From Psammoneis japonica (Eukaryota): a DNA stretch of 64,000 nt. The stretch lies in NCBI GenBank assembly GCA_008632985.1, contig QPGO01000026.1, positions 124,001 to 188,000 on the forward strand. The letters run 5' to 3'. Shown here in pieces: positions 1,580 through 64,000 of the stretch. Position 1 is the stretch's first letter. Every line of letters starts with the position of its first letter. The notes beneath the pieces were generated by a model, which saw only the letters and a program-made list of their open reading frames with translations, did not search any database and was not told the DNA's origin. The translations under genes and the position numbers were made by a program.

Positions 1580-3235
1580 ACGGCACACGCGGCTTTGCTT
1601 GGTGCTAGCCTAGTTTGACAGTCTTGGAAGCAGAGTAGATTTTTCGACCTGCATAACTGAGCCGTACAAAATCTATGCCGGTAAATATCAAGATAAAGCA
1701 AGGCTCCCACATGCCTCATTCTTAGCAAGTGACCCCCAGAATCCTGAAAAGAACGACGTCACGACGTCATGTGTGTGCATTGGTGATTGAATCCAGTCCA
1801 GAGCGATTGCTCTGACTCAGCAGACTTGAAAGAGACATTTTTATAAATCTAGAAGTAAAACTAATGCTAAGATGTGCGGGGCATGCGTAGATGGTGATTT
1901 TAAATGCACGGTTGTTGTTTGCCGTTGCATGTTTCCGTTGGTTGGCACTCTTCGAGCGATTCACGACCACAAAATCACACACTTTTTTCTCACTTTTCTC
2001 ACAACACCAAACTTGTGACACCACGTTTGCACCCTCTGCAGAGGACACTTCATGCACAACCATGGCTGCTGTCATTGCTTTTGCTGTCTGTCTAGGAAGG
2101 ACGGGCTTCGCAGCAGGAGCATGCAGCCACCACATCATCGCACAAGGTTTCACCGGCGCATGATTTGCACCAAATGCCATCATCTGACATTGAGGACATG
2201 ATCAAGGGTTTCAGGAAGGATGCCTTGGATGATGATGCTGTCAACTTTTTGCACCTGTCAGTCAGGAAATTCAAGGTCCTGAACACATGGCAGGACTGCC
2301 AGACTGCAAGGGGCTGGCAGCTGCAGGCCCAAGCATTTGCTGGGGACGTTGTCAGGACTTGGGCGGACTGTCTTGCAAAGTTGGACAATGTCTGTGCAGG
2401 CAGGAGTTGGAGGACAATGCCCTCATGGCCACACATCACCAAATGCGGAGCCGCTAAAAGAGTCGACTTGCTCTGGCATTGTGACACGTGAGACAGTGTC
2501 AGGACAGCCTTCACAGTTGCAGCATTGAACGACCTGGATGTCATGTGTACAGACATTCAGAATGCTTGCTTAGATGCCAAGACCAAGGAGCATTGTCAGA
2601 CTGCTGCTGGTCTGGAATTTGGAAAACAGAGCAAGGGACAACCTGTCAAGATTGTCAGGGCATTGCATGGACTCAAGAGCTCAGGTGCTGGATCATGGGA
2701 CCACATGGCAGCCACATCATGCAAGGTGGGCTTTCAATCTAGCAAGGGTGATCTCAATGTGTGGATGTGCAAGGCAATCAAGCCAGATGGCTTCAAGCAT
2801 TGGGATGACTCACCAGTGGCATCTCATGACTTTCAGATGTTTGCAGATCATGTGGTGTCTTGTTGCATTCTCAGGGGAGGAAGTGTGAAGGAGCCAGAAG
2901 AGCATCTTGGCACCCAAATCTGCAAGTGCCAACTGTCCATCCTTGGATCATGTGGCATCTCCTTACATTCTTAAGGAAGCAAGTGTCAAGGAGCCCAGAA
3001 GAGCACCTTGGCACCCAAAGCCAAAAGTGCCAACTGTCTGGCTTGGACAGGAAGACATGTTGGGCATTGTCCTCAGACTTGCACATCAAGAGAGCAATTG
3101 ATGACATTGAACCCAAGCTTGGCCAGGTGGGCTGGAGCCTCAGGACCAAGGCTTCAACCCCGTTGAGCTCAGGATGCAGGTCAGAACTTGACAGTTCCCC
3201 TGAGCTGGATGCCCAGAGGGCAAGTTGCCACCAGG

Positions 3236-5010
3236 TGGACGTGTTCCAGTCCCAGGTGACGCACAAAACGACAATCGGATTTTGAACATAATTTATGCAC
3301 ATTTTAGTGTACAGAGCATTTTAATAAAAATACTTAGACGGATTGACTTTTATGGGCTTCTAGAGTATGAACATTTAAATAGTTTTTTGAGGGGTGTTCA
3401 AATCCTCATGGGATGTGCTGATTGTACATCAGTGGATTTACACTGAGATTTCTTTGTAGGTAGAAAACCTGCCAAGCAGCATCGTAGAAAGACACATTTA
3501 GGTGACATCCAAATAACGGCAACATTTTCGCCGAAAATCATCCGTTGTGTTACGAATCTTTTAACGCAATGAAAAACATAGACAGCACAATGACAATGAC
3601 ATTGCAACACTCACACGAGTCTTGTTAGTGTTGCAAAACATTTGCATTTGTACAACTGAGTCCGCAGCTCATGGCTACGAAGCAAGCACTCTCACGTGTT
3701 CCCACGTGATCGACTCACTCCGCGGCCGCTCCCAGTTCTCATCCGCAGTCCACAAGGACACCATGCGTGAAGTGAAACAAGAAGCAGCCGACCGAAAGGT
3801 TGTGGCTCACGGGGAGACCCTCAAAACGATCCTCAGGACCCCACCCGACCTCCAGGCCAGAGCTGTCAAGCGCAGCACCAAGACAGGCGCGTGGCTCTCA
3901 GCGTGCCCTTCGACACTGAATGGCACGGAACTCTCATGTCAAGAGTTCCGCAACGCGCTCTTCCTGTGGTGTGGCAGTGCTCCACTGGACCTCCCGGAGC
4001 ACTGTGATGGATGTGGATGCAAATTCACAATGAACCACGCCCTTCAGTGCAAGAAGGGCGGCCCAGTCATCTGGCGACACGATGAAGTCCGTGACAACCC
4101 AGGTGACCCAATGGGCAAGGCTTGCAAACCTTCCTGTGTGCGCGACGAACCTCTAATCAACCCTGCTGGTCGCAGCACAGGAAGCTCAAGCACCCCCACT
4201 AGCTCCCCAGGAAACACCAACTCCAACAAGTCCAATGATGGCGATCGCGGCGACCTTCTCGGCATGCAATTCTGGGATGGAAGGACAGACATGGCAACGG
4301 ATGTTCGCATTCCCGACACGGATGCGAAGTCATGCCTGTCCAAAACACCAGAGGATGTCCCAGCAATGCACGAACGGGAGAAAAAGCGCAAGCACCTCAA
4401 GCCCTGTCTCGAGCAACGCCGTCATTTCACGCCCTTCGTAGTGTCATACGACGGACTCTTTGGCAAAGAAGCCAAGGCAATGCTCCGCAAGATGGCCTCA
4501 AGACCATCAGACAAATGGCAAAAGCCACACTCTGAAGCATGTGGCTGCGTCAACGCGAGAATGAGTGTTGCCATGGCCCGGGCGACTCACCGTTGCCTCC
4601 GGGGATCCCGTGTTCCCGCCTCTCACATCAGCTCCAGACGACCCCAGTGGGAAGATGGCACTGGTCTGTCCCTGTGCAGACACCAAATGACCCCACCCAA
4701 CCGACTTGCACCCTTCCAGACAAACACACCAACCGACTGCCCACCCACAACATCGACATCGTGCCTGGAAGCTGGCAAAAACCCACCACCACCCCGAAAA
4801 CGGTGCCACAACTGTTTCAAATTTCGCGCGCACAGCCTGCAATCTTGCGCACGACAACTGCCCCTTGTTCGCACGACTGCATTGATCATGTGGCACCCAC
4901 TTTTCTCTCTGCTTTTGGTGGTGAAAGTTCGATCGTAAGTTGGGGAGCAAAAATCGCGCAAATGTCGTTTTTGTGCACGATTTGGTTCACGTGCGGCTGG
5001 AACACGTCCA
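3236..5010. mobile_element. Non-autonomous TIR DNA element inserted in the copia pol
   Basis: Ends TGGACGTGTTCCAG / CTGGAACACGTCCA (14-bp perfect IR) plus subterminal IR GCACAAAACGACA / TGTCGTTTTTGTGC. Removing the element and one GG copy restores CAC CAG GGA CTC (H-Q-G-L), implying a 2-bp TSD. Confidence 0.8.
3660..4700 (+). mobile_element. 3' fragment of a CRE-type non-LTR retrotransposon (CCHC knuckle plus restriction-like endonuclease)
   Basis: GAWL...EFRNAL, CDGCG...HALQCKKGG...RHDEVRD, RGDL...DVRIPDTDA, EREKKRKH...FTPFVVSYDG, ARATHRCLRGSR. No RT domain, consistent with 5' truncation. Confidence 0.85.
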
Positions 5011-5916
5011 GGGACTCATTGGTGTGTTGTGCTGGACGGTGAAATTGGGCCGGATTGACACTGCAGTTGCCATGTCCCTCATGTCCTTGCACCCAGATGC
5101 GCCAAGAGTTGGTTGCTTGGACAAAGTGCTTCACATCTTTGCACATGTGAAAGCACATGCAAAGTCTGCAATGGGGTGTTTGATGACACCAAACCCACCT
5201 TTGACCCATCTTGCTTCCAGAAGTGCAGCTGATCAGAGCATTGTCCTGGGGCAGCCAAAGCCATGCCAAGGGATGCCCCCCAGGCATGGGGTGACAGCAT
5301 CAACACCACATGTTTTGTCGATGCAGATCATGCGCTGGTTGTCCTGTGACACGATGATGCCATGTGGGGATCATCATCTTTGTGCAACGGGCGCCAATTC
5401 TGTGGTGTGCTGCAAGCTTTGAATGACCGGGATCCCAATCAAGGGACCAGCAAATGTCTTCTGCAATGACAAGGCCATGTTCAAGAACTCAACACGGCCA
5501 ATGTTGCTTGCGTGGTTGGCATCAACAAATGATGCACAGACACCTTGACTTTGAGCCTGATCTGGCTGCTGCATTGTGCGACTTTGATCTAGATGCACCT
5601 GCACTTCTGCCACATTCCTGCCACTGCCATGCATCTTACCTTGCTCTGCTGCCACCAGGGCCACCATCACAACCACCTCCATGCATCCTGTCTCAGGCCT
5701 GAAGAACACAAGCAAGACCACCATTCCAGCACACAGTGCACAGCTGCTCCCATTCCTGAGAGCCAAAGTTGTGAGTTGGGTCAGATGCATTGATGCCATT
5801 CATCATGGTGGTGTGATTGGCACAACTTCATCCATGGCACATGCCATGTTTGCAACCAGACCTGCTGCTGTGACCACCATGATGGCCATGATGAAAGCTT
5901 GCACTTTTGAGCAAGA

Positions 5917-6195
5917 TGACAGGATTTGAACAGGATTTAGGCGCGCGCGACCATTTCGCGCACTATTTAGTTTGCCGCGCACAGTTTTGTGTGCTCTTTA
6001 GTTCCGCGCGTACGCGCGCAATGCAGTTTGCTTTCGAGCCACTCGGCTCACAAGAATGATGACAGAAGCCCAATCACACCGACTTGCACGTCTTTCGGCT
6101 CCTGCAACGGTCTCTGAGCGGAGACTCATCTGCCATTTGGACAGCAGCAAGGAGTTGTTGTTTGAATTCTTGCCATTTGCCTTCAATTTCTGTCA
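5917..6195 (+). repeat. 5' LTR (279 bp)
   Basis: Direct repeat of 10035-10312 with TG...CA inverted ends. Confidence 0.95.
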
Positions 6196-7136
6196 GACCA
6201 ACAGTCTTGCTCATTGTCAACCCATTGAGCAACCGCCCTCGTCGTCGTTGATTTACCGACAACGCTGTTTCAATTCTGCGTGGACCTCCGTACATGTTCT
6301 ACATGCATCGGCAAGTCTACGCGCATTCAATGCCAGGCATCGGCAGGAATTTAACGTCACCGTCAAGTCTCTTTACCGCTGGACATCTGGATTGATTGTG
6401 CCACCTTTCATTGCTGAAGACATGCATTCAACAGTTGCATCCAAGTCTGTCCTTGATCTAGACCCATCCCTTGACACACCCATTCATCAGTTGATGGTCA
6501 AGAACCCCACACATCCAAGGATCTTTGTCGCTGAAGACACACACATGTGCACATCTTCACGGCCAAGGACTTGAACCCATTTTTTGGACTGCGGCTTTGC
6601 TGCCACTCTACAAGCACACCGAGTCTGTTGCACCTGATCTACCCCGGACTGCTGGTGCTCTGCAGTTCCACTAGGTCCACGAGGACGACTGTGAGAGCAA
6701 GCAGCCGTGATTGCAGCCTGCGTTGGGGCGAGGGTGTTTTCCCGCGTTTGTTCGTTTGTCCACAGCGCCTGACGCCTGTGTCAACTGGCCAGCCTGATCG
6801 GGAAATCCAACCGACATAAAATGAGAACGGTTCGGGGGTCTTGTCCACCTCTAGTCAGCTTGCCTGCAGGGGTTTACAACCCGCTGCTCTGCTTGCAAGC
6901 AACCCAAAGCGCTGCTGGCTGCGGGTTCGGACATGCCGGCACAACTCTGCGGACCAGACAGGAAGTTTAGCACTTGACAACGAACGGGATGCCACAGCCC
7001 GGCGACTTCGGATTTTAAGATGGCTCAAGATTTCAAGTCAAGTCTTTTTCAAGCCAAGTTCCAAGTCAAAACTCCGAGTCAAGATCGTGCTCTAGATTGG
7101 CTCCTGTCTTTTGTTTCTACTGCACCGTCCTCCGTC

Positions 7137-9638
7137 ATGGTTCTCACGCGACAGCAACAAACCGAAAGCTTCAAATACATTCTAGGCACTGTGCTCAATC
7201 AAGATGATGACAGCCCTCTTCATTCTGCCCTGTCCATCAACGGGATTGAATCGTGTGAGGAATTGTTCACGTTCTTACCCACCCAAATTGACGCCCTCAC
7301 TTGCAGAGACGGCACCAATGTAGTGCCTTTGCCACGGACCCACAGAAACCTCCTAGCAGCTTTGATCAGCTTCTACTTTGTCAAAGTTTGCAACGGTGAT
7401 GATGTGACCAATGAACCCCAGTTGCTCACACCCGAGGAATTTCACAACTGCCGCCTTGGTCCGGACTACTTGACCTCTCTAGCCACTGGCGCAGCACCCT
7501 CCACACCTGTGCCGAGTCCCTTGCCATCCAAACCAGGTGAACCCAGTGCCATTTTGACACCAGCCTTGCACTGTACCGCCACTCAGGTGTCCCCCACAAG
7601 TGGTGTCAGTCGCGCCCCGCATGTCTTGACCAACCCGCCTGCAAGCAACCTCGGCCCAGTGCAGGATTGCAGCCCTTGCGCAGGCCCGCACTTCGAGACC
7701 AGTTGGGACACTCCACCCATGGCTTCCAAAGCTGCAGCCTTTGCACCCCGCAAACCACGTGCTGCCAACCTCCACGTGTCGACCGCTGTCACCCTTCACA
7801 GCCTTCATTTGGGAAGTGATGGAGATGACAACTTGCTTCTCGCATCTCCTGATGGGGAGCCTCCTTTTCCCATCATTGAATCTGTTCACAACAGTTCAAC
7901 TGGTTCATCAGATGGGGAGTTCAGGACATCCAAGCAGCTTCATTGTCTTTGGATCCCCCAAGTCTTGTACCTCGAGACTGGGCCTCCTGATCGGATGCCT
8001 CAAGTCTCGTGCCTCGAGACTGGGCCTCCTGGTTGGATCCCCCAAGTCTCGCACCTCGAGACTGGGCCTCCTGATCGGATGCCTCAAGTCTCGTACATCG
8101 AGACCAGGCCTCCTGATTGGATGCCTCAAGTCTCGTGCCTCGAGACTGGGCCTCCTGATCGGATGCCTCAAGTCTCGTACATCAAGACCAGGCCTCCTGA
8201 TTGGATCCCCCAAGTCTCGTACCTCGAGACTGGGCCTCCTGATTGGATGCCTCAAGTGTCGTACATCGAGACTGGGCCTCCTGATCGGATGCCTCAAGTC
8301 TCGTACATCGAGATTGGGCCTCCTGATTGGATGCCCCAAGTCTCGTGCCTTGAGACCAGGCCTCCCAACTGGACTCTCCACATGGCTTCCAAAGCTGCAG
8401 CCTTTGCACCCCGCAAACCACGTGCTGCCAACCTCCACGTGTCGACCGCTGTCACCCTTCACAGCCTTCATTTGGGAAGTGATGGAGATGACAACTTGCT
8501 TCTCGCATCTCCTGATGGGGAGCCTCCTTTTCCCATCATTGAATCTGTTCACAACAGTTCAACTGGTTCATCAGATGGGGAGTTCAGGACATCCAAGCAG
8601 CTTCATTGTCTTTGGATCCCCCAAGTCTCGTGCCTCGAGACTGGGCCTCCTGGTTGGATCCCCCAAGTCTCGCACCTCGAGACTGGGCCTCCTGATCGGA
8701 TGCCTCAAGTCTCGTACATCGAGACCAGGCCTCCTGATTGGATGCCTCAAGTCTCGTGCCTCGAGACTGGGCCTCCTGATCGGATGCCTCAAGTCTCGTG
8801 CCTCGAGACTGGGCCTCCTGGTTGGATCCCCCAAGTCTCGTACCTCGAGACCAGGCCTCCTGATTGGATGCCTCAAGTGTCGTACATCGAGACTGGGCCT
8901 CCTGATTGGATGCCTCAAGTCTCGTGCCTCGAGACCAGGCCTCCTGATTGGATGCCGTACATCGAGACTAGGCCTCCTGATTGGATGCCTCAAGTCTCAT
9001 GCCTTGAGACTGGGTCTCCTGATTGGATCCCCCAAGTCTCGTACCTCGAGACTGGGCCTCCTGATCGGATGCCTCAAGTCTCGTACATCGAGATTGGGCC
9101 TCCTGATTGGATGCCCCAAGTCTCGTGCCTTGAGACCAGGCCTCCCAACTGGACTCTCCACATCTCGTGCCTCGAGACCGGGCCTCCCAATTGGATCCTC
9201 TCCATGTCTCGCACCTCAAGACTCGGCCTCCGGATTGGATCCCTCAAGTCTTGCGCCATGAGACTCGGCCTCCTGATTGGATCCCCCAAGTCTCGCACCT
9301 CAAGACTTGGCCTCCTGATTGGATCCCCGAAGACTCGTGTCACAAGACTGGCAAGTCCCTTTGGATTCCAGAAGTCTTGCAGCACGGGACTGGTTGCCCC
9401 AACCAGACATCTGCAGTCTTGCACCACAAGATGTCTTGCTCCAATCCGATCCCCAAAGGCTTGCACCTTGAGACTCGTTTCTCCAATTGGATCAGTCTCT
9501 CAGGAGATGCAGCTGAGCTCGCAATCGGATTGGTGGAACACAGTGCCACCGCTTGTGCCTTTGAACTCATGCTTGCTCTGTTCCCCGAGTCGTGCAAACG
9601 CCATGCCACCCTGCACGAGCACTGCTCTGTTTTTCTAG
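7137..9638 (+). CDS. Gag-like N-terminus fused to a 13-aa tandem repeat (TE ORF, expression unknown)
   Basis: Open frame from ATG 7137 (also open from ATG 7020); repeat QVS[YCH][LI]ET[GR]PPD[WR][MI]P. Confidence 0.5.
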   Translation: MVLTRQQQTESFKYILGTVLNQDDDSPLHSALSINGIESCEELFTFLPTQIDALTCRDGTNVVPLPRTHRNLLAALISFYFVKVCNGDDVTNEPQLLTPEEFHNCRLGPDYLTSLATGAAPSTPVPSPLPSKPGEPSAILTPALHCTATQVSPTSGVSRAPHVLTNPPASNLGPVQDCSPCAGPHFETSWDTPPMASKAAAFAPRKPRAANLHVSTAVTLHSLHLGSDGDDNLLLASPDGEPPFPIIESVHNSSTGSSDGEFRTSKQLHCLWIPQVLYLETGPPDRMPQVSCLETGPPGWIPQVSHLETGPPDRMPQVSYIETRPPDWMPQVSCLETGPPDRMPQVSYIKTRPPDWIPQVSYLETGPPDWMPQVSYIETGPPDRMPQVSYIEIGPPDWMPQVSCLETRPPNWTLHMASKAAAFAPRKPRAANLHVSTAVTLHSLHLGSDGDDNLLLASPDGEPPFPIIESVHNSSTGSSDGEFRTSKQLHCLWIPQVSCLETGPPGWIPQVSHLETGPPDRMPQVSYIETRPPDWMPQVSCLETGPPDRMPQVSCLETGPPGWIPQVSYLETRPPDWMPQVSYIETGPPDWMPQVSCLETRPPDWMPYIETRPPDWMPQVSCLETGSPDWIPQVSYLETGPPDRMPQVSYIEIGPPDWMPQVSCLETRPPNWTLHISCLETGPPNWILSMSRTSRLGLRIGSLKSCAMRLGLLIGSPKSRTSRLGLLIGSPKTRVTRLASPFGFQKSCSTGLVAPTRHLQSCTTRCLAPIRSPKACTLRLVSPIGSVSQEMQLSSQSDWWNTVPPLVPLNSCLLCSPSRANAMPPCTSTALFF
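7950..9340 (+). repeat. 39-bp minisatellite in two blocks, part of a higher-order duplication with 663-bp offset
   Basis: Unit approximately CAAGTCTCGTACCTCGAGACTGGGCCTCCTGATTGGATGCCT; the ~230-bp spacer starting CATGGCTTCCAAAGCTGC occurs at 7718 and 8381. Confidence 0.95.
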
Positions 9639-10034
9639 CAGCAGCCCAGTGTGGCAACCGTTCCAAGAACCAACAGACGGCTGTCAGTCTTTACGACCTT
9701 CACTCAGGAAGTGAAGGCAATGTCAACTTGCCTGCATTGTCCTGCGATGTTGCCCCGCCGTTCAACATTGTCAACCAGACCAAGCTTTGCTCCTTCCATT
9801 GCAAGTGCGGATGTGGAATCCCACAAGATCCCAAGTGTGACTTGAGCTTTGAAAAGCACAACGGCATCTACAATTGGGGAGACGCAGCTCATCTTGACCC
9901 ACTTGGAGAATGCAATGTTGCTCCAGGATCTTGATCCTTGCTTGTCTCCTCATGTTTTGGTGCTTTGACTCCAAAGTTCTTTAGTCAATCCAAAGTCGAA
10001 TCTGTTTCTGTGACTCTTCAAGCAAACTGGGGAG

Positions 10035-10312
10035 TGACAGGATTTGAACAGGATTTAGGTGCGCGCAAAATGTCGCGTGCTGTTTAGTTTGCCGCGCACA
10101 GTTTTGTGTGCTCTTTAGTTCCGCGCGTACGCGCGCGATGTAGTTTGCTTTCGAGCCACTCGGCTCACAAGAATGACAACAGCAGCCCGATTGCACCGAC
10201 TTGCACGTCTTTCGGCTCCTGTGACGGTCTCTGAGCGGAGACTCATCTGCTGTTTAGACAGCAGCAAGGAGTTGTTGTTTGAATTCTTGCCATTTGCCTT
10301 CAATTTCTGTCA
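10035..10312 (+). repeat. 3' LTR (278 bp)
   Basis: Direct repeat of 5917-6195, preceded by a purine tract. Confidence 0.95.
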
Positions 10313-11679
10313 TGAGACACCAGGCTTCCCACTGAGCACATGCATGATGCAGACAAGAGACTTTGGACAAGAAATGTGCACATGCCCCCATGAAGATACG
10401 AGGGGGTGCCAGTTGCCAATTGCACTGCCATCGCTGCTGCCAAGTGGTTGTCATTGGCGCAGATCCCTCCCAACAAAGTTTGCTTCAACCTTCTGCCAAG
10501 CAGATCTGCATTCATTCAGATCCTTGTCCAAAGTGGCAAATGTGCTGCTGGCAAGTTTTCCCACTAACTTTTTGAATGGGAGTGTGCCTTCCTTCTTGTG
10601 GAGTGATGTTTTTTTGATGTTGCAATGTTCAGCCCAAGCCTGAAATGCTTTGTGTCCATTCTCCATCATGTCAAAAGGTTCAGCTCATGCCCTCACCCAG
10701 CCCACATTGTCAATCAAGTGCTCCTTCAACAATGACACACACGGCAATTGTCCTTGTCAAATGCATCTCCAAGGTGGGAGTGGCAGCTGGGGCAGCACAT
10801 GCCTTTCTTGATCATCAGCGAAGGGACCAGGAGGAGGCCCACACTTCACAACATGCTTTGAGCATGCCAGGCTTTTGTGCCAAGAGGCTCTAGAGCACAT
10901 CTTTGCACACATCAAAGTCCTTTTTGACATGCCCACCACTCTTGGCTGTTGCAGTCATTGCTGCATTGTTGAAGCCCGCCACAGCTGAAGGCTGGGTCCT
11001 CTTCAGTTGATCCTGACATCACCACACAATCACTTGAAGGTTCTCAATCTGGACTTTTTTTGTGTTGCAATGATGGGCTCATTGTGTCAGCTGACAAGTC
11101 AGGGTGATTGACCCTGTGTTGCTTCATGTTCATTGGTGCACACTTGGGCACAATGCCCAATGCTGCAGCCCCACCTCCAAGCCCACTGCACATGTGTGGA
11201 GATGGTGACCACAGACCACAATGCGAGCATTTTCCGTTTTGACCATTTTGCAGCTGACAGTTGCAGCATGACATGTGTCAGTGTGCATCAACTTGAACAC
11301 CGACGCATTCGCATCCATGGCGCGGTTGTGAAAAAAAGCATGGGAAACCATGTCATCTGTCTCACACACCCAACACAGACAGATGGACGGCAGAGAACTG
11401 TTTGGAATCGAGCCCATTCTCGAGTTTCGTCAATGGACCAGTTGCCGATTCAAAATGAGTTGCAGAGTAGACTTTTTGTAGTGACAGATTGCCTTGGCTT
11501 TCAAATTCCCAACTTTGGCTCTAGTTTACTCGCTAGCAGGTAAGCACTTCGGGCTAAATCAGACGATGGATCACGGCCGGACACATACAAATACAGACGG
11601 CGCGGTACCCAACGACTCTTTCGTCGGATGTCGATTGCCATTGACGTTGTTCCTCTTCCTATCAATGCATTACGACACC

Positions 11680-15053: not shown

Positions 15054-15551
15054 GATGCTGAATAACTTTTTGTAGGTGAATAAGTGGAAGCGAGGGCTAA
15101 TGATGCAGATGAGTTCTGGGTTCGCATCGTCGAATCATCATCGCTTGGCATCGCGTCGTTCGTGCATCGGGGGGGCGATTCCCGCTCTTTTTTCTGTAGT
15201 ATTTCGGTACATTTTGTGGTATGTAGAAGTATTACTGATTCCATTCGTAGACGGTCGCCTGACTGACACTGACTGTTGGTGGGCGGGAGTGGGATCGTAA
15301 CGGCCTTCGGATGATGACGTGTACAACGGATGTGACAGGCATCTTCGATTGATACGACTGCATGATCGACGATTTCAGCCAGTACAGTAGAGTATGTCAT
15401 AGTACCGGTAATATTTTTCTGCGCTCGCCATGACCGGCAGCCGCAGAGCACCGTTGTCGTCGTTGCTGCAATCGACACCGCTATAATAAAGCACTGTGCT
15501 TGTTATTCACTGAAAATATAATCTCGACAGAACCGTACACAACATTATATC

Positions 15552-24000: not shown

Positions 24001-24016
24001 TCGCGGCCATGGCGCT

Positions 24017-26205: not shown

Positions 26206-26212
26206 TCTGCTG

Positions 26213-34075: not shown

Positions 34076-34079
34076 GTGA

Positions 34080-47604: not shown

Positions 47605-47839
47605 AGTCATGACTCAACGTCATTCTGGTTGCATCTCACGACTGCAACCCAGACTCAGCTTTTCTTCTCAAATTGTTTGGCTCAGCTCACAATCCAATTC
47701 AAAACCAAACCAACGACTTTCGTCACAATCTTTAGACAACGACTTTCAACCAGCGTCTGTTCACTCTGTTGCCATTCTTGTTGCTGCCAACCTCCGAGGT
47801 CTCATCCATCCCACTGCACTGCAGGACTGCATCTCGACT
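47605..47839 (+). repeat. 3' LTR (AGTCA...CGACT)
   Basis: Direct repeat of 40631-40865, immediately after the PPT. Confidence 0.93.
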
Positions 47840-48450: not shown

Positions 48451-48845
48451 TTGCAATTTGCGTGTGCCCATTGAATGCCAAGGAATCCACACTGGAGAGC
48501 GCCACATCAAATGCAGCCAGTCGCACATGGGAAGCTCTTTGCAGTGCAACCGGGTTGCTCAAATTGCCAACAACACAGAGTCTTTGCCAGAACAAGCTGC
48601 TGGCCAAAGCTTTTTCAGCTTTGACAAAACCTTTGGAGAAGAATCTACAACACAGCAGGTTTGTGATGGTGCAGCCAAGCCCATTGTCCAGGGAGCAGTT
48701 TCAGGAATCAATGCAGCCATCTTTGCATGCGGACAAGCCTCTGGTGGTGAGACCCACATGATGCAGGATTCCAGGCCCATTGAAGAAGGCTGCAACTTGA
48801 CTGGTGGAGGAATTGCACATGTGGCCAGCAAGCTGGTTTTCGATT
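48451..48845 (+). pseudogene. Captured N-terminal kinesin motor fragment (kinesin-7/CENP-E-like)
   Basis: VAICVCPLN (cf. VxxRxRPLN), FSFDKTFGEESTTQQVCD, GINAAIFACGQASGGETHMM (cf. P-loop IFAYGQTxSGKTYTM), GGIAH. Confidence 0.85.
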
Positions 48846-48992
48846 TTCAGGTGTTGCAATGCTGATGTTTATTCACCCTTTTTTCTTGACAACATTCATG
48901 CAGTTGCCAATGCGTTTGAGCATTTGGAACAACACTGACACCAACAATTCAAGTTGAGTCATCTGGCTGTAAATCAGAAATGCACAAGTGGC

Positions 48993-50639: not shown

Positions 50640-53600
50640 TGTGACAGAGATCCCAATCTAAGTGGGAATGACCTTCTCCACTGACACCCCCCCCCCCCCC
50701 CCCACACTGGGAGAATCAAAAGCCTGGTAAAAACAGGGTTGAAGATCTGCCAGTGCAAAAGAGAAGTGGTGAGAGTCATGACTGCCAGACAGACAGACAG
50801 CAAGGTGGAAACAATGCATCCGTTTCTGCGCCCGACACCATGCAATCGTCCACTCATTAAACCAATCCATTGAATCACCAACAATTGACAGACCGGGAGA
50901 TTGCTCTGAGCATGAGCAGGATGGCAAACTGGGAGGTCTTCCAGGATGACACCAGAGTGCACTGTTGGGAGGCCGTCCAGACCTGGTCCAATCCAAGAGG
51001 AAATCAGGTGGGCAGCCAGAGTGGTGCCAATTTGGCAGCAGCAAGTCACCAGGGATTGGCCAAGGCAACAACTGACAACAACTCCAAGCAGTGCAACCCC
51101 CCCCACAATGGGAGGCTTGCAACATTGGCAAGGTTGGGGTGAGGAGAATCCGAGACAATTGACTTCCCAGAAAAGACAATGGATTCATTTGCCTCTTTCA
51201 CGGTGTGCAGAGGAGCTGTCAGCATGCAGTGCTCAGATGGAAGCTTGTGCCATGCAATGTGTTGACGAGCATCAAGGGAGTGTGTTTTGATTGAACCAAT
51301 TGCCTCGTTCACAATGCACACTGTTGCTGCTCGGTCAGCAGCAACACCAGCTTTCTTGTGCTCAATTGGCTTGCCAAGTTTGTCCAAAGCAATCTTAAAA
51401 ATGGCCAATGGGTCAGTCTTGACATTCACAGAAAAAGAACAAGGGTCAACTGGTGGGGTGGTTGCCGATGGAGTGGCAGCATGGTTGGGGGCAACAACTC
51501 GGCATGAGAAATTCTGGGCCCACGTACGTCCGCAGCAAAACAAGGTGGTGGCAGCCTTCTTGGGAGCAGCAGAGGCATTGGAGGCTGGAACATGGTTGAG
51601 TTCCAGGTCAATGGTGGTGGTTGCAGCAGATGGAGTTGTCACTGTTGGACGCAACTCAATGACAGGGCGAGTTGCATCGCGTGCAGCAGCAAACTCGGTG
51701 GATGGAGCAGAGATGGCGCTGAGGGTCCATGTGGGGTGTCGGTTGCAGTTGCAATTGGCAAATTGCCATCTTGAGCCGGTGCCTGGGACAGAGCGGCCCA
51801 CATTGACAACGATTTTTCTCGCCAGAACAATGCCGTCCTCAAACGGGTGCCATTCGCAGCGGCCATTGTAATGTTCTGTTGCACTCAAAGAAATCAACGG
51901 TGCATGGGGCAGTTGACATTGGATCTTTGATGGTGCACCTCACATGGGATCGCTGCGCAAGTAGAGTGCACACCACGCCACACGCAAAACGTTGGCTGAT
52001 GATGCTGACAAAAGCAATGAGATGAACAACAATGAACACGCCATTTGTGTCGACAGAGCAAAGGTGTTTACATTGAAAATGCTCACCGCCGGTGTCAACA
52101 ACAACGTGCTGAAGGTGTTTTGTTGTTTCGCGGTGTGGCATGGCCCCCCCTTGCACCAAGCAAAAGCAAGGCTCACAACCTGACAGAGATCCCAATCTAA
52201 GTAGGAATGACCCTCTCCACCAACACAGTGTGCACTCACATTTGTTCTTCATTGTTGTGACCCAAAATCTTCATCATTGGAGAATGTGACAAATTACATC
52301 ATGCGTTCGACATTTTCTTTTGTTTGCAAAGTGCTCTGCATCAAAAAGAAGCTGCGCTCTCAGCACGGTGCACACAGATCCCAAACCCACCAGTGTCAAA
52401 CAAGAGGGCTGATGCCAAGAAAGGAAGAAACTGCTCCAGCTCCAGTGCTTCGCACACTTTGGCAGCAGTGCCCAGGATGCAATCCAGTCTTCACAAAATG
52501 GAGCCTGATCACAGCAGACACGCAGCTTGGTCCAACCTTGTCAATTCATCCAACCCAAATGTCTTTGTCATTGGCTCTTTTGATTTTTAGAGGCCCCCCC
52601 AAACACCCCTGCTGACTGGAAGCAAAGCTGAGAAACAACTCCCAAGAAAATCTGGTCCAAGCTGGCCTCTGTCTTGGTGCACACCAAGCTCAACCTTCCT
52701 CCTCTGTCATTTGCCAGCCCTGGTCAAAACACAAACACCAGCAAGCAATGATGCACATGGCAGCCCCACCCAGACAAAGAGAAAGCTGCACAACTCACCT
52801 TGTGGCACCATCTGGCATCATGCTCATTTTGCACAAGCTGCAGCACTCATTTTGGCTCCTGAAGAAGCTGTGCTCATCTCAGCACAAGTTGTGGTGTGCA
52901 TTTTGGCACATGAGCTGCACTCATTTTCTGTGCAAGTTGTGGTGCTCATTCAAAGTGAGTCAAATGTGGACAAAAAAAATGCAAAACAAACAGAGCCAAA
53001 AACAAGAAACACAACCACCAGATGCCAGCACAGGTCATGGTGCTCATTCAGTGCCTGAGTTGCACTTGTTCAGCACAAACTGTGATGCTCATTGCAGCAC
53101 CTGAGTTGTGCTCAATGTGACACACAAAATGCACTCAATTGATGTCTGCATTGTGCTTGTTTCAGCACATGTTGCAGTGCTTGGTTGGCACCTGAGTTGC
53201 ACTCATTTGGCAAAAGTTGTTGTGAACATCTAAAGAAAGAACCAACAACTGAAATGATGGAATGCACAACAGAGATGCACAACACACAATGACATTGGGT
53301 TGATCTCTCAATGACTGCAAAACTTGAAACCAAATGGTGTGCCCCACACTTTTCCAAAAAAATCCATGAAGACATGCTGTCAAGAAACAACAAAAACAAA
53401 ACACAAAGAAGAAAAGAGAGCAATGTGCCACAAATGCCATCTGTTGACCCTGCACAAGAACAGACTGTGTGCAGATGACAGTCAAATGATTTTTAGATGG
53501 TTGAGTTGATCTCTCTGAGATCTTCTTCTCACTCTTTCTTGCCAGCACACAGTTGCCAGTTTGCAGGGAGCTCTTGAGCTTGTTGCTCATGCCATCAGTG

Positions 53601-56600
53601 CTCTGACAGGTTGTGGCCTTGTTGAGCAATTGTCTCTCTGGCCTGCTCAAAACCAGTGCACACGTCATCAACCACACTGCATTTGACCTCCAAGAAGCCT
53701 GTTTGTGACATGATTGAAAAGATCTCTGTTGTTTTCATGCAACACACTCAAAACACCATGAAGTTTCCAAACACATCAACAGCCTTTGTGGTGGTGTCAC
53801 CACAGATCATTGCTCTGGATCAATTTTTTGATGGTTTCAAGCATGTGAAGGCCAAGGAAGACATCACTGATCTGCTTCAGGGGTGCATCCTTCAAGAGCT
53901 TTTGTCCTCCCAGAAACCCCTGACCCTGCTGACACCACCCCGTTGTGTCACTCTTCAGAAAACATTGCTCAAGAAGGTTGCCAGTCCTGCATCATTCTCT
54001 GACCAAGCACCTCATTTTTCCTGACAGATGACAGACCACAAAATTCTTGAAGAAGCTCTTCAGGCTTGTCACACCATTTGGTTGTCACTGTCAACATCTC
54101 ATGTCTCTGCTTTGCCCCAGACATGCAACACATGTTCAGGAACTGGAGCAAGTCTTCTGATGCCACATGCTCTCCAGTTTGTGCTCCCAAAACTCCAGCA
54201 GCATTGTCTGCTGCTTCAGGCCCTCTTGACATCTCTGATTTGATGGATGCACTGAAGAAAAACTGTGCTGCATCAAAGACACCCTCGTCTGGAGTTTCTG
54301 GCAGCTCTAAGACCCCTGCCACATCTTTGTCATCAACATTTCCATTCAATCTGGATGCTCCAACCAAGGATGTGCATGCATGTTTTGACCACAAGGCTGC
54401 AGAAAAGGTGATTCTTGCACGGTGCTCCAGTGGATCCATGCATCATCTGAATGGCACTGACCACCTTGTCCCACCTGATGGTTCCCTGTTTGTCATGGGC
54501 ATGACTCCCAATCACAAGGCTCTGTTCTGGGAACCAAGTGTGTGTCATGATGACTCTTGTCATGCTGGTGATTGTGAATGCTGTGGGCAACCGTTGTGGT
54601 GTTGTTTTTAACAAAACCATGGCAAAAACAAACATTTTGCCATCCAAAATGGCCCTGATGATGACCTCTCACAACAAATGCACACCCATTGTCTTGGAGC
54701 CTTGCACACTCTACACAAGCTCCTTTTGCACTCCAACATTTTCCCCAAGAACAGCAGGCTGCACTGTGTTGTTGCCTCTTGCTGCATGGCAGTGGTTGCA
54801 AAATGTTGAAGCAGAAGCAGGGGTTCAGTGGAGTCACACCCCAAACAAGGAAACCCACCCATCAAGAACCACTTTGCACTCTTCAAGGATTTTTTTACAG
54901 CCAGCTGTGCACATTCATTTTTGACACTGACTCATCTTTGGACAGGTGGCCTTGAGATTGCTGTCTTTGTCAACAAGAGTGCCAAGCACTCAAAGCACCT
55001 GGCAAGAGTGCCAAGCATGAGCTCATCTTGTCAGCTCACTTGTGCAAGTGCACCAAGAAACAGATTGTTGAGACGCTCTGCATGTGTTTGAGCCAGGCAG
55101 ACAGTCTGGCACACAGAGGTGCCTCTTCCAACTGAATTTGGTGGAACCCCCACCACCAGCATGAGCATTGTGATGATCCTTTGTCTTGCACTTCTCTTGG
55201 CATCAGTGCTGTGGATGTTGCCAATTTGCCAACTGTTGATGGCCTTCCCCTGAGTGGGATTTTCAATGAGATGTGCTTGCACATGATGACATGGTTGTTC
55301 CGTGAGATGACACCTTTGATGGCCTTTGCAACAAGTTGCACTCTCTGGGCATTTCAACGACAGACAATGATTGCCTTTTGCGTCATGCTTGCTCAGCACT
55401 GGTGTTCAAACTCAAGGTTGATCCCAAACAAGGCCACCAAGCATCTGCACCCAATGCACACTGGCAAACAACTTTTTGAAGATTGTCCTGTCCTTAAGAA
55501 CAGCCCCTGTGTCAAGGTTTTTCCCACTTGCTTCTGCCAGTTTTTGAAGCAAGAAGCTGTTCAACATGCACAGCTGTCTTTGCTGGCACTCAAGGAAACT
55601 TGAGACATCTGGACAGAATGGAGAACAAGTTCTTCTGTCTGCCAATTTTCTGCCATTGGATTTTTAGTTGGGTGTCATTGCAGCAAGCTTTGGATCTATG
55701 ATGCAGCCCATTTTCTCCCCTCCAAGCCCGTGCAGATGATGGCAAGGCAGCTGTGAAAGAGGGGCTTGCTGTTCTGTTGCCTTTCACTTCAAAACCACTT
55801 TCTTCAGATGTCACGAGTCTCCCCGATGACAATCCATTGGCACGCAATGCAGATCAGGGAGGGATCAAGATCAGGGGAGGGCACAGAAGACACCATTGAG
55901 CAATGGCTGGCACTTTTTCACCTTGAACACTCTGATGCTTTTGACAAAGCTGGTTTTCAGCTGTCAGCTCCATTCAAATCTCTGCCATTGAACCATCTTG
56001 AGCATCTTTGCCTGCTGTGGTTAAAAAGGAACATGCAGCTTTTGAGGTGAATGCAGTGCTGGCAACATGAATCTGCTCCATTGATGCCAAGCTTTTGCAC
56101 CATCCAACCCATGTCCCCTCAAGGTTCACCCAGCCCTTGGCAAAGGTGTCATTCCCCACAGATGTGGACACTTGTGTGTTCCAGCAGAGATGAAGGAAGG
56201 TCATGTTGGCATCTGCACTTGCCATTGTCCACAGCTTCAGTCTGCTCTCATTGACAAATGTGCAGTCCACACCTGCAGTGGTGGTCGCAAGAAAGATTTT
56301 GTGGTTGATTGCCTGCCAAAATTCCATGACTGTGGCACCTGCATGTTGCAAAACACAGTCTCTGCTCCAGTTAAGACATCATCATCCATGGCCAGTTGAT
56401 TGGTGGGAAGTGTTTTGCCTGCCCCTTGGTGCTCCCAGAGCTGGATGAGGTGCTCAAAAAATCCATGCATGACCTCAAGGATGACAACCCCAATTTTGCT
56501 GAAGAGCACAATGCAGCCATTGTGCCCATGATTGACACCTGCAAGAAGAGCCAAAACAAGGTGCTCAAGGATGAAATGAAGTTGATTCCACACTGCTGCA

Positions 56601-59599: not shown

Positions 59600-62500
59600 T
59601 CGGGCCTTTTCTTGTGCTTCTGCCACTCCTGGACATTCTTCATAAACCAAAACATTGTCCCCAATTGCTTCGACAGGGACAACACGTAACTTGGGTGAGC
59701 ACAGAGTCTTCTCAGGCGTTGAAAGCCAGTTGTTTCATTTGTGATCAAGCTGCCAGCGACTGGCCAAGTCTGTGTGCTGACACCGTTGCCTCACAGTTCT
59801 CTGGTCAGCTTGACAAGCAGTTGGATGGACCACTGCCCAAATCGATCCTGTGGCTTCCTGTTTGAAGAAACACAGCAAACGGGAGGGAAGCTGTTGATCG
59901 CCGTTTCGTGTGCCGAAGGTCACACAGGCAAAGTCACACCATGGTCCTTCGCTTTTGTGGTCGGGGTGCGCACGGCATGCATCCCTCCCGTTTGCATTGT
60001 AAAACTCTGTCTTGCAAGTCAGGTGTGTGTTTTCACCATCTTCACCAACACAATCCTCCCACTTTTCCGACATGAAGTTTGGCAACACAGGATGAACTTG
60101 GCAACAAGCATGCAAGCTGTTCCACTCAAACGTCACAGCGCCGATCCCTCGGTTGTAGGTGAGAGTGAACGCACTTCCTCCCACCGTGTGATTGTCTGTC
60201 CTGACTCTTGATGATTCCTTTTTCCCAGTTGGCAAAATCCAACTGTCAGCTGAAATTGCGGCGTTGAGCCTCATTTGGTCCTCCATGCGCGACACCACTT
60301 GCTTGAGAAAACTGTCGAGGTTGCGTTGTTGTGCGGCAGATGACGGCAGCTTGAAAAAGTCTTTCAAGAGACATTCCCCCAACCCTGCGTCAAAGTTCAT
60401 CGCATGTCGGTGACAATGAAGAAACGCCATGAGATGGAGTGTTTCATGAAGCTTTTGAAGCTTCCACCCGCATCCTTCTGTTTGCGGGACGAGTTGCACC
60501 ATCCGGTCAATGAGGAGACGGATTTTCTTGTTCATTTTCTGAACAGATGAACTGGGAGCAACGCTTGTGATGGGTGGATCGCCCAGCCTGCACCATGCGT
60601 GGAAGACAAGAAGGTCCTCGAGCAATTGAATGAATTGCCGGACTCTGCAGTCAAGTCTTTTTCCCTTGTGTTTTTTCTTTTTTTGGTTGTCGTCACCATC
60701 CTCAGCCTCACTCTCCTCTTTCTCATCCTCATTTTTGTCCCAGCCACCCTCTTCGGAATCCTCCGACCTTTCATCGTCAGAGTCCAAGTGCTCACTGGGT
60801 TGGCAGTGACTCTCAAAGTTAACTTTGGGTGTCTTGTGATTCTCTGGAACAATGGGTTCGTCTGCGTCCTCGTCAAGGAAGCATGACTCACATGCGTTTC
60901 GTCCCTCGCTTGTCAACAGGAGAAGGCAGAAAACAAAAGCCATTCCAGCCCAGTGGTGAGAGTTGAGGAAGGTGAGCAACGTTGCTCCTCCTTTGAAGTT
61001 TGTTTGCAAAAAGGATTCTTTGCAAGTTGACCGGTGATTGCTGAAAATCCTTTCCACTGTGCTGTCCACCTCACTTGCGACCACAGGTGTCATGCTGTCT
61101 ACAAATGAATTGATCACCCTTTTCAAGGTGCCATTTTCAAAGAGATGCATCATGTTGCTGGCTGTCGCAAGGGCAACGCCGCATGGTTGTGCGCCAAAGT
61201 CTGCCTCAAAAAGACAGTTGGCAGGCACGTTGTGTTGCTTGGGGCAATGCAAGATGCCCAACCAGTGCTTCCTTTCTTTGTCTGATCTGTCATCGTCGTT
61301 GGCCTCAGTTTGCACTTGGTGGAGATCCAGTCCTCGGACAAACTCGCATTCAATCCATGGGTCGTCCAGTTTGTTGAAGCCAGTGAGGCAAAAACGACAG
61401 CAACGTTGACCACAGTTGTGACCTCCGCATCTCGTCCAACGAGACAGTCGCCGCTTTTTGCATCTCCTGTGATCAGAACGATCAGTGGGATTGCGTGCAG
61501 GTGTGCATCTCATCCCCTCATCACACGCATGTTTTCATGCCTCCTTTTCTCATGACTTCCAAAAGTGGCTCCAAAATGACATGCAAGCAAGTGTGGCAGT
61601 CTCTTGACGAGCATCCCTTCTCTGCCTTGCGATTGTTTGAGAGATTCTTTGCCGCAGATGACGACATCTTTTCCAAATCCGGGAGATGACCAAGTGGTTT
61701 CCAGACACTCTTGTCCGACCATTTGTTGAAGGCAACATGCGCAGAGGTCATGATCACTGGTTCTCCGCAATGTGATCCCATCCCTTGTGTCCTGCCAGTC
61801 TTGTCGAGGTAAATGACATTGCACTCGAGAAATTGTTTCTCCGGGTCAGTCATCCGTTCTTCGCAACTGTGCCTGCACCACTCACCCGCCAAAAGGCACT
61901 TGTCATCTGGTCCTTCACTTTGTACTTCCCAAAAGGATTGTCTGGATCGGCCACATTCTCTCGGCTGCACCACAGGTGAGGATCGAGCAAAAACTGTTCC
62001 CAAACCTTTGTGAAATCCCATCTTGGCACTGACACTCGTTTTGGCAAACCGGTTTTGCAATTTTTGGTTTCTAGAGTGACAGGAATAGACTCGCTGGGTG
62101 GAAGAGGGAAATGATTAGTTAAGGCACGCATCAACTCTTTTCTCCTTGGCAGAACTGTGCCAAGCTCAATGTTGCTGTTGCCAGTGTGCCTCTCAATGAA
62201 ATCAACAATGCAATCGCACAATTCCAGGGGAGCACCACGTGTGTCCATGATCTTCTTGCACAACTCTACGCAAGCTCCGTTGAGATTTGTCAAAGAGGGA
62301 GTAGAAGCCAAGGCCTCTTCTGCAGGAGCGTCGTGCCTTGTCCCCAAACGTTGATCCTCATCGTGAATGTCCTCTTCCTCCTCCATTGTCACGTCCAACA
62401 CTGCAGCAAAGGATTGACCGCCGCCAACATCCAAATCATTCATTGCCAAAAGTTCAACTCCATGCATGCTGTGGTTTGATGAAATGGAGGACATGTCGTC

Positions 62501-62821
62501 CATTCCGCATGGCGCGTCATCCTGGGAGGGGAACAAGGGGCTGCTGCTCGGATCACTTGTTGAAGATCTTGGGAATCGGCTGCAAGTGGATCGCCTCGGA
62601 TGGGATTCGTCATCATCAGAGGACAAAGAGGAAGAACTGCCGCTTTCTTTGGGTGCCCCCTCTATTGTGGCAGGAATGTCGCTTTGATCTGGGACCAGAT
62701 CTTGGGTTTGCAACTCTTGGGCAACTGAGCAACACGTCGGTGAGCATCTCCAATGGCAGGCTGTTCGCAAAAAACTTTGGCCACAACCGGGACAGAGAAG
62801 AGGGTTTCCGCCCATTGTCAA
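59600..62821 (-). mobile_element. Plavaka-type (CMC-related) transposase pseudogene
   Basis: FLLDPHL...DNPFGKY, GEWC, VIYLDKT, EPVIMT, WKPLGHLPDL, RDCHTCL, NMMHLFENG, GWKLQKLHETLH, NFDAGLGE, HPDHKSEGPWCDF; frameshifts and a deletion. Confidence 0.8.
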
Positions 62822-63270
62822 TCAGACAACATTGACAGGGCCTTCATCAAGACTCATGCTCATCGTCCTTGTCTTGTGGATGGGAGGGAAAAGAAGAACA
62901 ACACGCAAAAAAATGGCGGGAAATTGGCAAACATTGCATTTCTTCCAGATTTGGATGATTCTTGTGGGCATGACGTGTCTGCATTTTGATTTTTTATCTG
63001 GCATTCACCATGAATGTTGCACTTTTTATTTGCTGTCAAAATGCGAAATGTTGTCTGCATTGAAACGCAATGACAGCCACACGAAAAAGTGGGTTGGACC
63101 ATTCGTTGTTATGTGCAAACACATTTTCAAATTTCAGTGTTGCTGACAATAATTTGTGCAATGTCACAGAGAAAAATAGAGTGCCTGGCTGTCTCAACAC
63201 GACCCAATCGACGGTTGCACTGTCGAACAGTGCCACTCCTCTCATTGTTGCTGTGAAAAGATCAAGCAAG

Positions 63271-64000
63271 ATGTCGTCTCCAGCACCACCGGCAAAGAAG
63301 AGAAAGAAAAATGAGACTGTCAAGCAAATGAGCCCGAGACTTCAGGCAGTGTTGAAGAGAACAGGTGCGCAGGCAGCGCATGGTGCTTTGAAATCAGAAG
63401 CAGAGAAGGTGGCCAGAAATGATCTCTTTCCACAGCTGAAGTTTCTCAGTCCGTCAGAATTGGCAAGCAATGGGAGCGTCTCAATGTTTGTCAAGAAACA
63501 GATTGCTGGTGGCAACATGGACACTTCAAATTGGTCAGGAACTTGGGAGGAATGGGCAAAAAAGGCGGTAAAAAGGCAAATTAACAATCGCAGAAACACG
63601 GTGTGTTCGGCTGTTGGGGTGGAGGCAATGGCCCGTAAGTTGAGTGACCAATGTGTGTGATTCGAGAGTTGCGTGCATCTCACAAGAATGTGACGGTGAT
63701 GCTTTGTCTGTGCAGCCGTTGTCACCAAGGAAGAGGGAAAGGAAAAAGAAAAGAAACTCAAGGCGGCAGTCAGGAGGAAAAAGCAAAACAGGAAAAAGTC
63801 AAGCCGTGACATCAATGAAGAGAATGACATCCCGTTTGTGCCGACATGGGATCCGTTTGGCCTGGACACCATCACAAGCAAGAAACGAAGGAACAAGCAG
63901 GCACACAAGTGGTTCTGTGATCACATCCTGCCTCAAACCAAGCAAAAGCAGGCATGGAGTCGCACCATCAAAACTGGGAACGCACAGGTCTCACAGTTGT
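63271..64000 (+). pseudogene. Divergently oriented accessory ORF of the Plavaka-type element (intron from 63635), running off the window
   Basis: NLS-like PAKKRKK, NDLFPQLKFL, INNRRNTV, GTAAGT donor, downstream AHKWFCDHIL; same TpA depletion. Confidence 0.5.

Follow-up and report, generated by a model that had tools for sequence, protein, structure and literature searches.

The DNA described here is a window of 64,000 nucleotides from the diatom Psammoneis japonica (contig QPGO01000026.1 of assembly GCA_008632985.1, positions 124,001 to 188,000; coordinates below count from the first letter of the window), in which large transposon-rich blocks almost free of the dinucleotide TA alternate with gene islands of normal composition. 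Five depleted blocks, 45,022 bp summed, were drawn by hand from a map of every TA, and four TA-normal stretches, the gene islands, 16,830 bp summed, served as the baseline. The blocks and the elements within and beside them are given below, where o/e is the observed over expected dinucleotide frequency, LTR a long terminal repeat, TIR a terminal inverted repeat, RT reverse transcriptase, ORF an open reading frame and MITE a miniature inverted-repeat transposable element.

2100-3235, 3700-11460, 21000-27850, 30000-35280 and 40008-64000: the five TA-depleted blocks
2100-3235: Copia-like RT remnant in a depleted block, with ALHGLK at 2660 and NACL at 2561; weak RVT_2 match (E 0.29)
3236-5010: TIR-bounded element, arms 3236-3259 and 4987-5010; ORF 3565-4935 (457 aa) with KRKH and KPHS
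5917-10312, + strand: LTR element, LTRs 5917-6195 and 10035-10312, 92.5% alike
7949-9338, + strand: 42-bp tandem array; TRF gives 33.5 units, and the alignment covered 27
21000-27850: depleted block with internal TIR pairs, containing the mutated repeat copy 22377-22568
29480-29682, + strand: unmutated copy of the same ~200-bp repeat, in TA-normal DNA
29825-35369: TIR-bounded DNA element, arms 29825-29857 and 35337-35369; its interior is the depleted block 30000-35280; DRGH at 31257
39618-40007: TA-rich MITE (27 TA in 390 bp), TIRs of 30 nt, directly adjoining the block that starts at 40008
40008-64000: largest depleted block; per kb the o/e is 0.03-0.21 for TA and 0.04-0.83 for CG
40628-47840, + strand: degenerate Copia (CoDi-like) LTR retrotransposon, LTRs 40628-40866 and 47602-47840, 239 bp, 88% alike
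45909-47441, + strand: RT/RNase H frame of this Copia element, with three in-frame TGA and HVDD for YVDD at 46491
48332-48862, + strand: kinesin motor-domain pseudogene fragment in TA- and CG-poor DNA, k-mer depth single-copy-like
59738-62821, - strand: Plavaka/KDZ-like DNA transposon remnant; ORF 59738-61534, 599 residues, 2 Tyr

Over the whole 64 kb the o/e is 0.25 for TA, 0.65 for CG, 1.51 for TG and 1.48 for CA. The deficit is localised: in 44 of 64 one-kb windows TA o/e is 0.30 or less, and in the remaining ones it lies at 0.34-0.66. The depleted blocks hold 316 TA where 2,827 are expected from base composition and 1,555 are predicted at the gene-island o/e; what is left is about 10-20% of the gene-island level, ~5-fold below that of genes, and the loss is near saturation. 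The o/e in the blocks is 0.11 for TA, 0.51 for CG and 1.62 for both TG and CA, compared with 0.55, 1.00 and 1.19 in the gene islands, while the other dinucleotides are nearly equal in the two (AA, 1.20 versus 1.17). As shares of all dinucleotides, TA makes up 3.77% in the islands but 0.70% in the blocks; for CG the two values are 5.65% and 3.20%, and for TG, as for CA, 7.45% and 10.12%. TC shows no depletion (6.70% versus 6.99%) and the GC content of the blocks is slightly raised (0.499 versus 0.475). The loss of TA and CG, 55.1 per 1000, is almost balanced by the gain of TG and CA, 53.4 per 1000, so that two processes ending in TG or CA account for the composition. With the gene islands as baseline, a balance at the level of tetranucleotides gave no useful correlation; that baseline is unsuited there and the dinucleotide totals were used. 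The borders of the blocks are sharp, with the final TA before the largest block at 39991 and the following one at 40457.

CpG decay is the second process in the same blocks; it is slower than the loss of TA and contributes ~45% of the gain in TG and CA. Where TA loss is saturated the CG o/e still spans 0.04-0.92, and over the 44 depleted one-kb windows the o/e values of TA and CG are correlated (r = 0.55), which suggests methylated chromatin; the blocks are probably methylated and silenced. Erasure of TAA and TAG stops leaves long false ORFs on both strands of the blocks. The window has 153 ORFs of at least 120 aa, among them an 886-aa frame at 6978-9635 over the 42-bp tandem array, and gene finders would over-call genes in such DNA.

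The direction of the change can be read from the proteins that the elements once encoded. The RT/RNase H region of the Copia element was aligned with 120 homologues, and 261 columns with at least 70% agreement were taken as conserved. None of the 13 conserved tyrosines is kept, with seven replaced by cysteine, four by histidine and one each by tryptophan and alanine, while change is seen at 57 of the remaining 248 conserved positions (Fisher p = 1.5e-8). Tyrosine makes up 0.2% of the residues, where the homologues average 3.5% and none falls below 1.9%, and in a set of 240 other homologues none has lost all of its conserved tyrosines, the median retention being 0.92 and the lowest 2/7 (P0346). 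Of all 70 changed conserved columns, 23 are derivable by TA to TG or CA alone and four by CG decay alone; the 23 include changes across codon borders, where T|ACN to T|GCN turns threonine into alanine and T|ATN to T|GTN turns isoleucine into valine. Similarly, the Plavaka-like ORF keeps none of four conserved tyrosines (two Cys, one His and one Arg; 134 homologues), and in the kinesin fragment VY has become VC and FAYGQTGSGKT has become FACGQASGGET, with tyrosine replaced by cysteine twice and the P-loop broken. The loss of tyrosine codons, TAY becoming TGY or CAY, kills the element proteins. Comparison of the repeat copy within a block (22377-22568) with that in TA-normal DNA (29480-29682) gives 15 sites with TA outside and TG or CA inside, and one site the other way round. 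Taken alone this pair could also be read in the direction that repeat-induced point mutation (RIP) takes; the tyrosine data fix the polarity, and the direction of change, as judged from these codons, is TA to TG or CA.

Two other pairs were set aside. Segments 30688-31469 and 49251-50038, which are 72% alike, are too diverged (nine CA/TG doublets, 23 other doublets and 39 transversions), and the alignment of 34196-34751 with 34384-34931 was uninformative, having collapsed onto their shared overlap with 0 mismatches. Among the proteins compared, no further copy of the Copia RT/RNase H came from the same genome, the best identities being 58% and 63%.

Much of this had been noticed in a first-pass annotation made from the sequence alone, which described a TA to TG/CA hypermutation running opposite to RIP. 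All 11 motifs that it quoted are present where it put them: HVDD (46491), ETHAP (46161), DCCVD (47001), ALHGLK (2660), NACL (2561), CKCGC (9800), KRKH (4384), KPHS (4522), DRGH (31257) and, on the minus strand, LGHLP (61694) and PWCDF (59944). TA is indeed destroyed and not created, unrelated classes are affected (Copia, Plavaka-like and the kinesin pseudogene as well), and the sliding-window calculation that it proposed places the deficit, and the rise in TG and CA, in the blocks. Its statement that every transposon block is nearly TA-free beside normal islands holds for the averages given above but is too broad in its "every", as the MITE at 39618-40007 and the stretch at 3260-3690 are TA-rich. 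Tyrosine was said to be replaced only by cysteine or histidine; this is so for 11 of 13 positions in Copia and three of four in the Plavaka-like ORF, the rest being Trp, Ala and Arg. The labels "CRE" for ORF 3565-4935 and "transposase" for the DRGH-containing ORF 30324-31541 could not be confirmed, as neither ORF matches any Pfam family even at E <= 1.

The two LTRs of one element are identical at integration, so differences between them date from after insertion. LTRs 5917-6195 and 10035-10312 differ by five CA/TG doublets, four CG singles, three singles with TA in one copy and TG or CA in the other, and two transversions. An adjacent CA/TG doublet is best read as one ancestral dinucleotide that was resolved differently in each copy. 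These two LTRs have 19 CG in common, and only ~0.1 double hits at CpG are estimated, against the five doublets observed. The LTRs of the Copia element differ by seven CA/TG doublets and nine CG singles, with ~1 shared CG. Within the 42-bp array, too, one site reads GTAC, GTGC or GCAC depending on the unit. Such CA/TG doublets between the two LTRs of a single element place the change at the DNA level and after insertion, and with DNA transposons and a pseudogene also affected an RNA intermediate is not needed. The first-pass claim that both strands are acted upon is borne out by the even counts of TG (4,402) and CA (4,709) in the blocks. No strand-coordinated clusters were found there, neighbouring TG/CA sites being of the same type at a frequency of 0.487 where 0.501 is expected, so that events fall on either strand, singly and not in strand-coordinated runs. 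Outside TA and CG sites the two LTR pairs have just 2-3 differences per 239-278 bp, indicating that both elements are young, yet their sensitive TA sites are nearly all changed. By this rough LTR-based ratio, turnover at TA would exceed the background by at least two orders of magnitude.

Sensitivity depends on the flanking bases. Survival of each NTAN word, taken as its level in the blocks relative to that in the gene islands, is ranked as follows.

ATAT: 0.011
ATAC/GTAT: 0.022
ATAA/TTAT: 0.083
ATAG/CTAT: 0.14
GTAC: 0.18
GTAA/TTAC: 0.23
GTAG/CTAC: 0.24
CTAG: 0.24
TTAA: 0.56
TTAG/CTAA: 0.58

The most sensitive TA is thus one with an A on the 5' side of its T, which on the opposite strand is a T on the 3' side of its A, and most of the TA still present in the LTRs, the repeat pair and two related metagenome loci described below (L048 and L077) are in resistant contexts.

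The pattern was also looked for in a public read set, X1, in which 64% of the words sampled from 36001-46000 occur. Contigs from X1 (depth ~55-65) were compared with the TA-poor single-copy stretches 47786-48649, 48624-50257, 52178-53536 and 53522-56000 and differ from them by 0, 0, 0 and 1 letters, respectively. X1 unitigs reach 3.6 kb at ~60-fold word depth, and only accurate reads yield exact unitigs a kilobase or more long. The match excludes assembler error and makes base-calling error unlikely, although X1 is not a second chemistry.

X1 also bears on what is targeted. The MITE at 39618-40007 belongs to an extremely abundant family: in the bin 39336-40002 the summed k-mer depth is 137,069, compared with ~55-77 in single-copy DNA. 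It keeps 27 TA, while the adjoining block is TA-free for the next 466 bp. The stretch 3260-3690, inside depleted DNA, retains 26 TA, and the copy of the ~200-bp repeat that lies in a gene island has kept its TA. Conversely, the DNA at 48-50 kb and 52-56 kb, kinesin fragment included, is fully depleted at a k-mer depth equal to that of single-copy flanks (~62-77 for the stretch with the kinesin fragment). With an abundant MITE and an island repeat spared and single-copy-like kinesin DNA mutated, location is favoured over copy number: the position or chromatin of the block would fit the targeting better than copy number or homology does, and the description "repeat-restricted" in the first-pass annotation does not hold in the sense of RIP. 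Short length (200-390 bp) or recent insertion may explain the spared elements, and a length threshold like that of RIP is possible.

A second MITE lies at 39191-39398, and the TIRs of these MITEs are 30-35 nt long. The TIRs of the element at 3236-5010 are of the same type as those of the MITE at 39618-40007; its left ~440 bp are TA-rich (26 TA, 3289-3676) and its right part is TA-poor, with 5 TA. Either one element is nested in another of different age, or a single element was only partly targeted. The kinesin fragment may be the pseudogene of a host gene or else a captured piece.

Relatives of the Copia element include CoDi-like elements of Fragilaria and many metagenome contigs, and 80 metagenome loci that encode relatives of its RT/RNase H were compared with it. 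Three of them, L048, L077 and L047, have TA o/e values of 0.04, 0.07 and 0.18 with TG/CA at 1.6-1.9, while the remaining 77 lie at 0.37-0.90. L077 has cysteine or histidine at all six aligned conserved tyrosines, and L048 and L077 carry the identical Cys and His at two tyrosine sites, which suggests that partly mutated copies were still being copied. P0346, the homologue with the lowest tyrosine retention, belongs with these three loci among the environmental contigs that show TA loss with Tyr to Cys/His. No nucleotide similarity between the 80 loci and the window was found beyond ~81% over short stretches. Many of the related Copia loci are CpG-depleted (CG o/e 0.03-0.2) with normal TA (0.44-0.51), for instance L040 (CG 0.03, TA 0.47), L045 and L049; to judge by composition, CpG decay of these loci is common and TA loss is restricted to some lineages.

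These observations probably reflect a DNA-level, locally targeted mutator of TpA to TpG or CpA in the diatom nuclear genome. Such a mutator would convert A:T to G:C at TA only, would act within transposon-rich, probably methylated and silenced chromatin while gene islands are exempt, and would mutate each copy independently after insertion, on either strand, to near saturation. As a candidate step, an enzyme of the deaminase fold, drawn to silenced chromatin, would convert adenine in TpA to hypoxanthine, which is read as G. In tRNA, adenosine deaminases target A34, whose 5' neighbour is, as far as is known, always U33, and ADAR favours a 5' U and a 3' G. A deaminase would give strict neighbour specificity, an ADAT2 homologue has been proposed for a similar process in Bigelowiella natans (see below), and adenine deamination is our first choice of chemistry, though a tentative one that may well prove wrong. 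Because TA is its own reverse complement, the attacked base could be A or T with the same outcome; of the "A to G mutator" in the first-pass annotation the TA to TG/CA part stands, while A to G is inseparable from T to C.

The same process could therefore run on thymine, with a TET/JBP-type oxygenase or other modifier marking the T of TpA as 5-hydroxymethyluracil (5hmU), 5-formyluracil or a derivative that mispairs with G, so that T to C gives CA on one strand and TG on the other. Every result above fits this route equally well, A:T to G:C transitions do arise from 5-formyluracil and 5-bromouracil, and in dinoflagellates 5hmU is concentrated at TpA and TpC. TC, however, is not depleted in the blocks, and the literature listed for 5-hydroxymethyluracil and diatoms contains no work on diatom DNA, being by its titles on dinoflagellates, so we regard thymine modification as unlikely, if well worth keeping in view. 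A route with no dedicated enzyme, through error-prone repair or a repair bias of heterochromatin (Pol-eta-like errors at WA, where W is A or T, or biased mismatch correction), seems more doubtful. The scattered events, free of strand coordination, are what many independent errors would leave, and their coincidence with CpG decay implies frequent base-excision repair in the blocks; yet AA, the other half of WA, is unchanged, and Pol-eta, one of the candidates of the first-pass annotation, fits badly. A loss so specific to one dinucleotide and so nearly complete, down to the survival of 0.011 for ATAT, is also hard to obtain from polymerase error, and L040, with its extreme CG loss and ordinary TA, indicates that methylation-linked repair alone is insufficient. 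Repair error is thus improbable as the source.

It would seem very improbable, again, that the composition was simply inherited, whether from a master copy that was already mutated, through horizontal transfer out of a TA-poor donor or through selection against UpA in element RNA. Some mutations evidently did pass between copies, as in L048 and L077, and among the 34 best-supported differences between Copia copies in X1 only one is TA versus TG/CA. But the copies in the window are dead, with catalytic and structural tyrosines lost and stops present, doublets separate the two LTRs of a single element, units of a tandem array are polymorphic for TA, TG and CA, one repeat has many TA in its gene-island copy and few in its block copy, and unrelated element classes share the TA-poor state with a host-type kinesin fragment. 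ADAR-like A-to-I editing of element transcripts, fixed by reverse transcription, would account for the strongest case in the window, a retrotransposon, and for the T or U on the 5' side, a preference of ADAR that is also given in passages of a recent preprint (bioRxiv 10.64898/2026.01.13.699255). It is contradicted already, by what is seen in DNA transposons and LTRs, the Plavaka-like element, the DNA transposon at 29825-35369, the pseudogene and non-coding tandem repeats all being affected, with LTRs of one element differing, strands equal and the 3' preference being for T and not G; there is hardly any room left for it. Equally little remains for an artefact in which a modified base at heterochromatic TA was miscalled in sequencing or assembly. 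The signature occurs only in DNA that is probably modified, and X1 shares a sample series with the likely source of the assembly, its library type not being on record. On the other hand, a miscall on one strand would give mixed calls and not 3% TA together with low CG, the X1 unitigs of up to 3.6 kb at ~60-fold depth show 0-1 differences, three metagenome contigs from other records carry the same signature, and the tandem array has TA, TG and CA side by side.

Several points weigh against a DNA-level TpA mutator. TA-rich MITEs inside and beside the blocks mean that an ongoing regional process must miss younger inserts, or else that the MITEs are very recent. The doublets of the Copia LTRs are ambiguous and could be double hits at CpG, because nine CG singles and ~1 shared CG imply heavy CpG loss. 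Copy differences of the Copia element in X1, taken from the best 40 of 209 places and used as a caveat only, since unitigs break at dense variants, comprise 34 well-supported cases, with ~17 of CG versus TG/CA, one of TG versus TA and three CA/TG doublets; going by this list, biased as it is against densely variable sites, the copies may or may not have lost their TA independently. X1, with its unrecorded library type, may be the assembly's own data. The context ranking takes the gene islands as a proxy for the ancestral composition of the transposons and is approximate, and the 3' T preference matches neither ADAR, with its 3' G, nor the natural substrates of ADAT. All of the above, moreover, is read from end states, within a single 64-kb window of a single assembly. 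With these reservations the observation of the first-pass annotation is confirmed, and its interpretation is partly supported and largely right.

The Copia element has a summed k-mer depth 30-80 times that of its flanks in X1, and one X1 contig links 47746 back to 40782 (going back 6965), from the 3' LTR region to just past the 5' LTR. Such a join is expected for tandem copies that share an LTR, or for some other arrangement of another copy. The genes of the islands are as follows.

12573-20930: gene island with normal TA (o/e 0.49-0.65)
12573-14849, - strand: copine/C2 gene
15522-17726, + strand: class-3 lipase gene
28285-29484, + strand: ORF of 400 aa matching Uma2 (PF05685, putative restriction endonuclease; E 2.9e-9), in a small island between two transposon blocks

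The closest relatives of the copine/C2 gene have ~45-53% identity over 83-99% of its length (higher in partial matches), and all those with a named organism are from diatoms. The kilobase with the Uma2 ORF has a TA o/e of 0.34 and a CG o/e of 1.17. The Uma2 family is known mainly from cyanobacteria and would be unusual in a diatom nuclear genome.

Mutational defence of the genome has long been held a fungal speciality. In RIP, known from Neurospora and other ascomycetes, C changes to T and CpA to TpA, which creates TA and lowers GC, and the process is triggered by duplication. The process proposed here would resemble it in the irreversible inactivation of mobile DNA by dinucleotide-specific transitions that leave a footprint marking repeats. 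Unlike RIP, it destroys TA and does not lower GC, and a high-copy MITE and an island repeat are spared while single-copy-like sequence is mutated. Decay of CpG through 5-methylcytosine also yields TG and CA, marks silenced DNA and has probably left its trace in these blocks too (CG o/e 0.51, and as low as 0.04), but it cannot remove TA, and other diatom Copia loci show CpG decay with no loss of TA. In animals, APOBEC and ADAR provide defence by deaminase hypermutation of cDNA or RNA during element replication, in strand-coordinated clusters, and only elements with such an intermediate are affected. The hypermutation of mobile nucleic acids and the 5' U preference of ADAR are shared features, whereas here integrated DNA of all classes is affected, on both strands and with no clusters. 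The WA signature of Pol-eta and somatic hypermutation differs in that AA is untouched in the window.

No report of TpA loss or of A:T to G:C hypermutation in diatom repeats was found in the literature searched, in line with the statement of the first-pass annotation that it knew of none; there is, however, one description elsewhere. Mettrop et al. (2026, bioRxiv 10.64898/2026.01.13.699255) describe TpA to TpG/CpA hypermutation of integrated viral and foreign DNA in the chlorarachniophyte Bigelowiella natans. According to the preprint, two integrated viral regions changed ~1000 times faster than the remaining genome in mutation-accumulation lines, almost only from TpA to TpG or CpA, genes low in TpA are enriched in RT and DDE domains, and an ADAT2 homologue carrying residues linked to activity on DNA is proposed as a candidate. 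The word "diatom" is absent from the text of the preprint that was searched.

The window seems to record a process of the same kind. The change in both is A:T to G:C at TpA giving TpG or CpA, seen here as end states in the 11 of 13 (Copia) and three of four (Plavaka-like) tyrosines turned to Cys or His; in both it is confined to foreign or mobile DNA with clustered TpA depletion and CpA and TpG enrichment, the exceptions here being the spared MITEs and the kinesin pseudogene that was hit. The compositional thresholds given in these parts of the preprint single out 31 of the 64 one-kb windows, in runs. The host, in contrast, is a diatom (a stramenopile) and not a rhizarian, and the depletion is far deeper, at 0.03-0.2 compared with 0.45 in the nucleocytoplasmic large DNA virus region of B. 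natans described there. The targets in the window are several transposon classes and a pseudogene, in large blocks with CpG decay. The flanking-base ranking and the spared MITEs are features seen here and not in the passages on B. natans, while the rate in that organism comes from mutation-accumulation lines and here from the rough LTR-based ratio.

To the TpA version of mutational defence, described from one chlorarachniophyte, the window adds a diatom case of much greater depth, a ranking of contexts, evidence of targeting by location and not by copy number, and evidence that most related diatom elements elsewhere lack the signature. If the mechanism is shared with B. natans, the system would be old and widespread in major marine primary producers, and it would shape genome composition by raising GC, erasing TAA and TAG stops and creating long false ORFs, with a bias in the annotation and dating of transposable elements. 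Some diatoms can be transformed, and lineages with and without the signature could reveal the enzyme; a natural TA-specific A:T to G:C editor of DNA would interest genome engineers. It is conceivable, though we would not yet call it probable, that diatoms, or at any rate this lineage and the sources of L048 and L077, carry a chromatin-guided TpA editor of DNA that prefers ATA/TAT and belongs to the same ancient defence as that of Bigelowiella, a heritable defence found across the stramenopiles, alveolates and Rhizaria. TpA editing on that scale would be the functional mirror image of fungal RIP, run by an adenine- or thymine-modifying enzyme.

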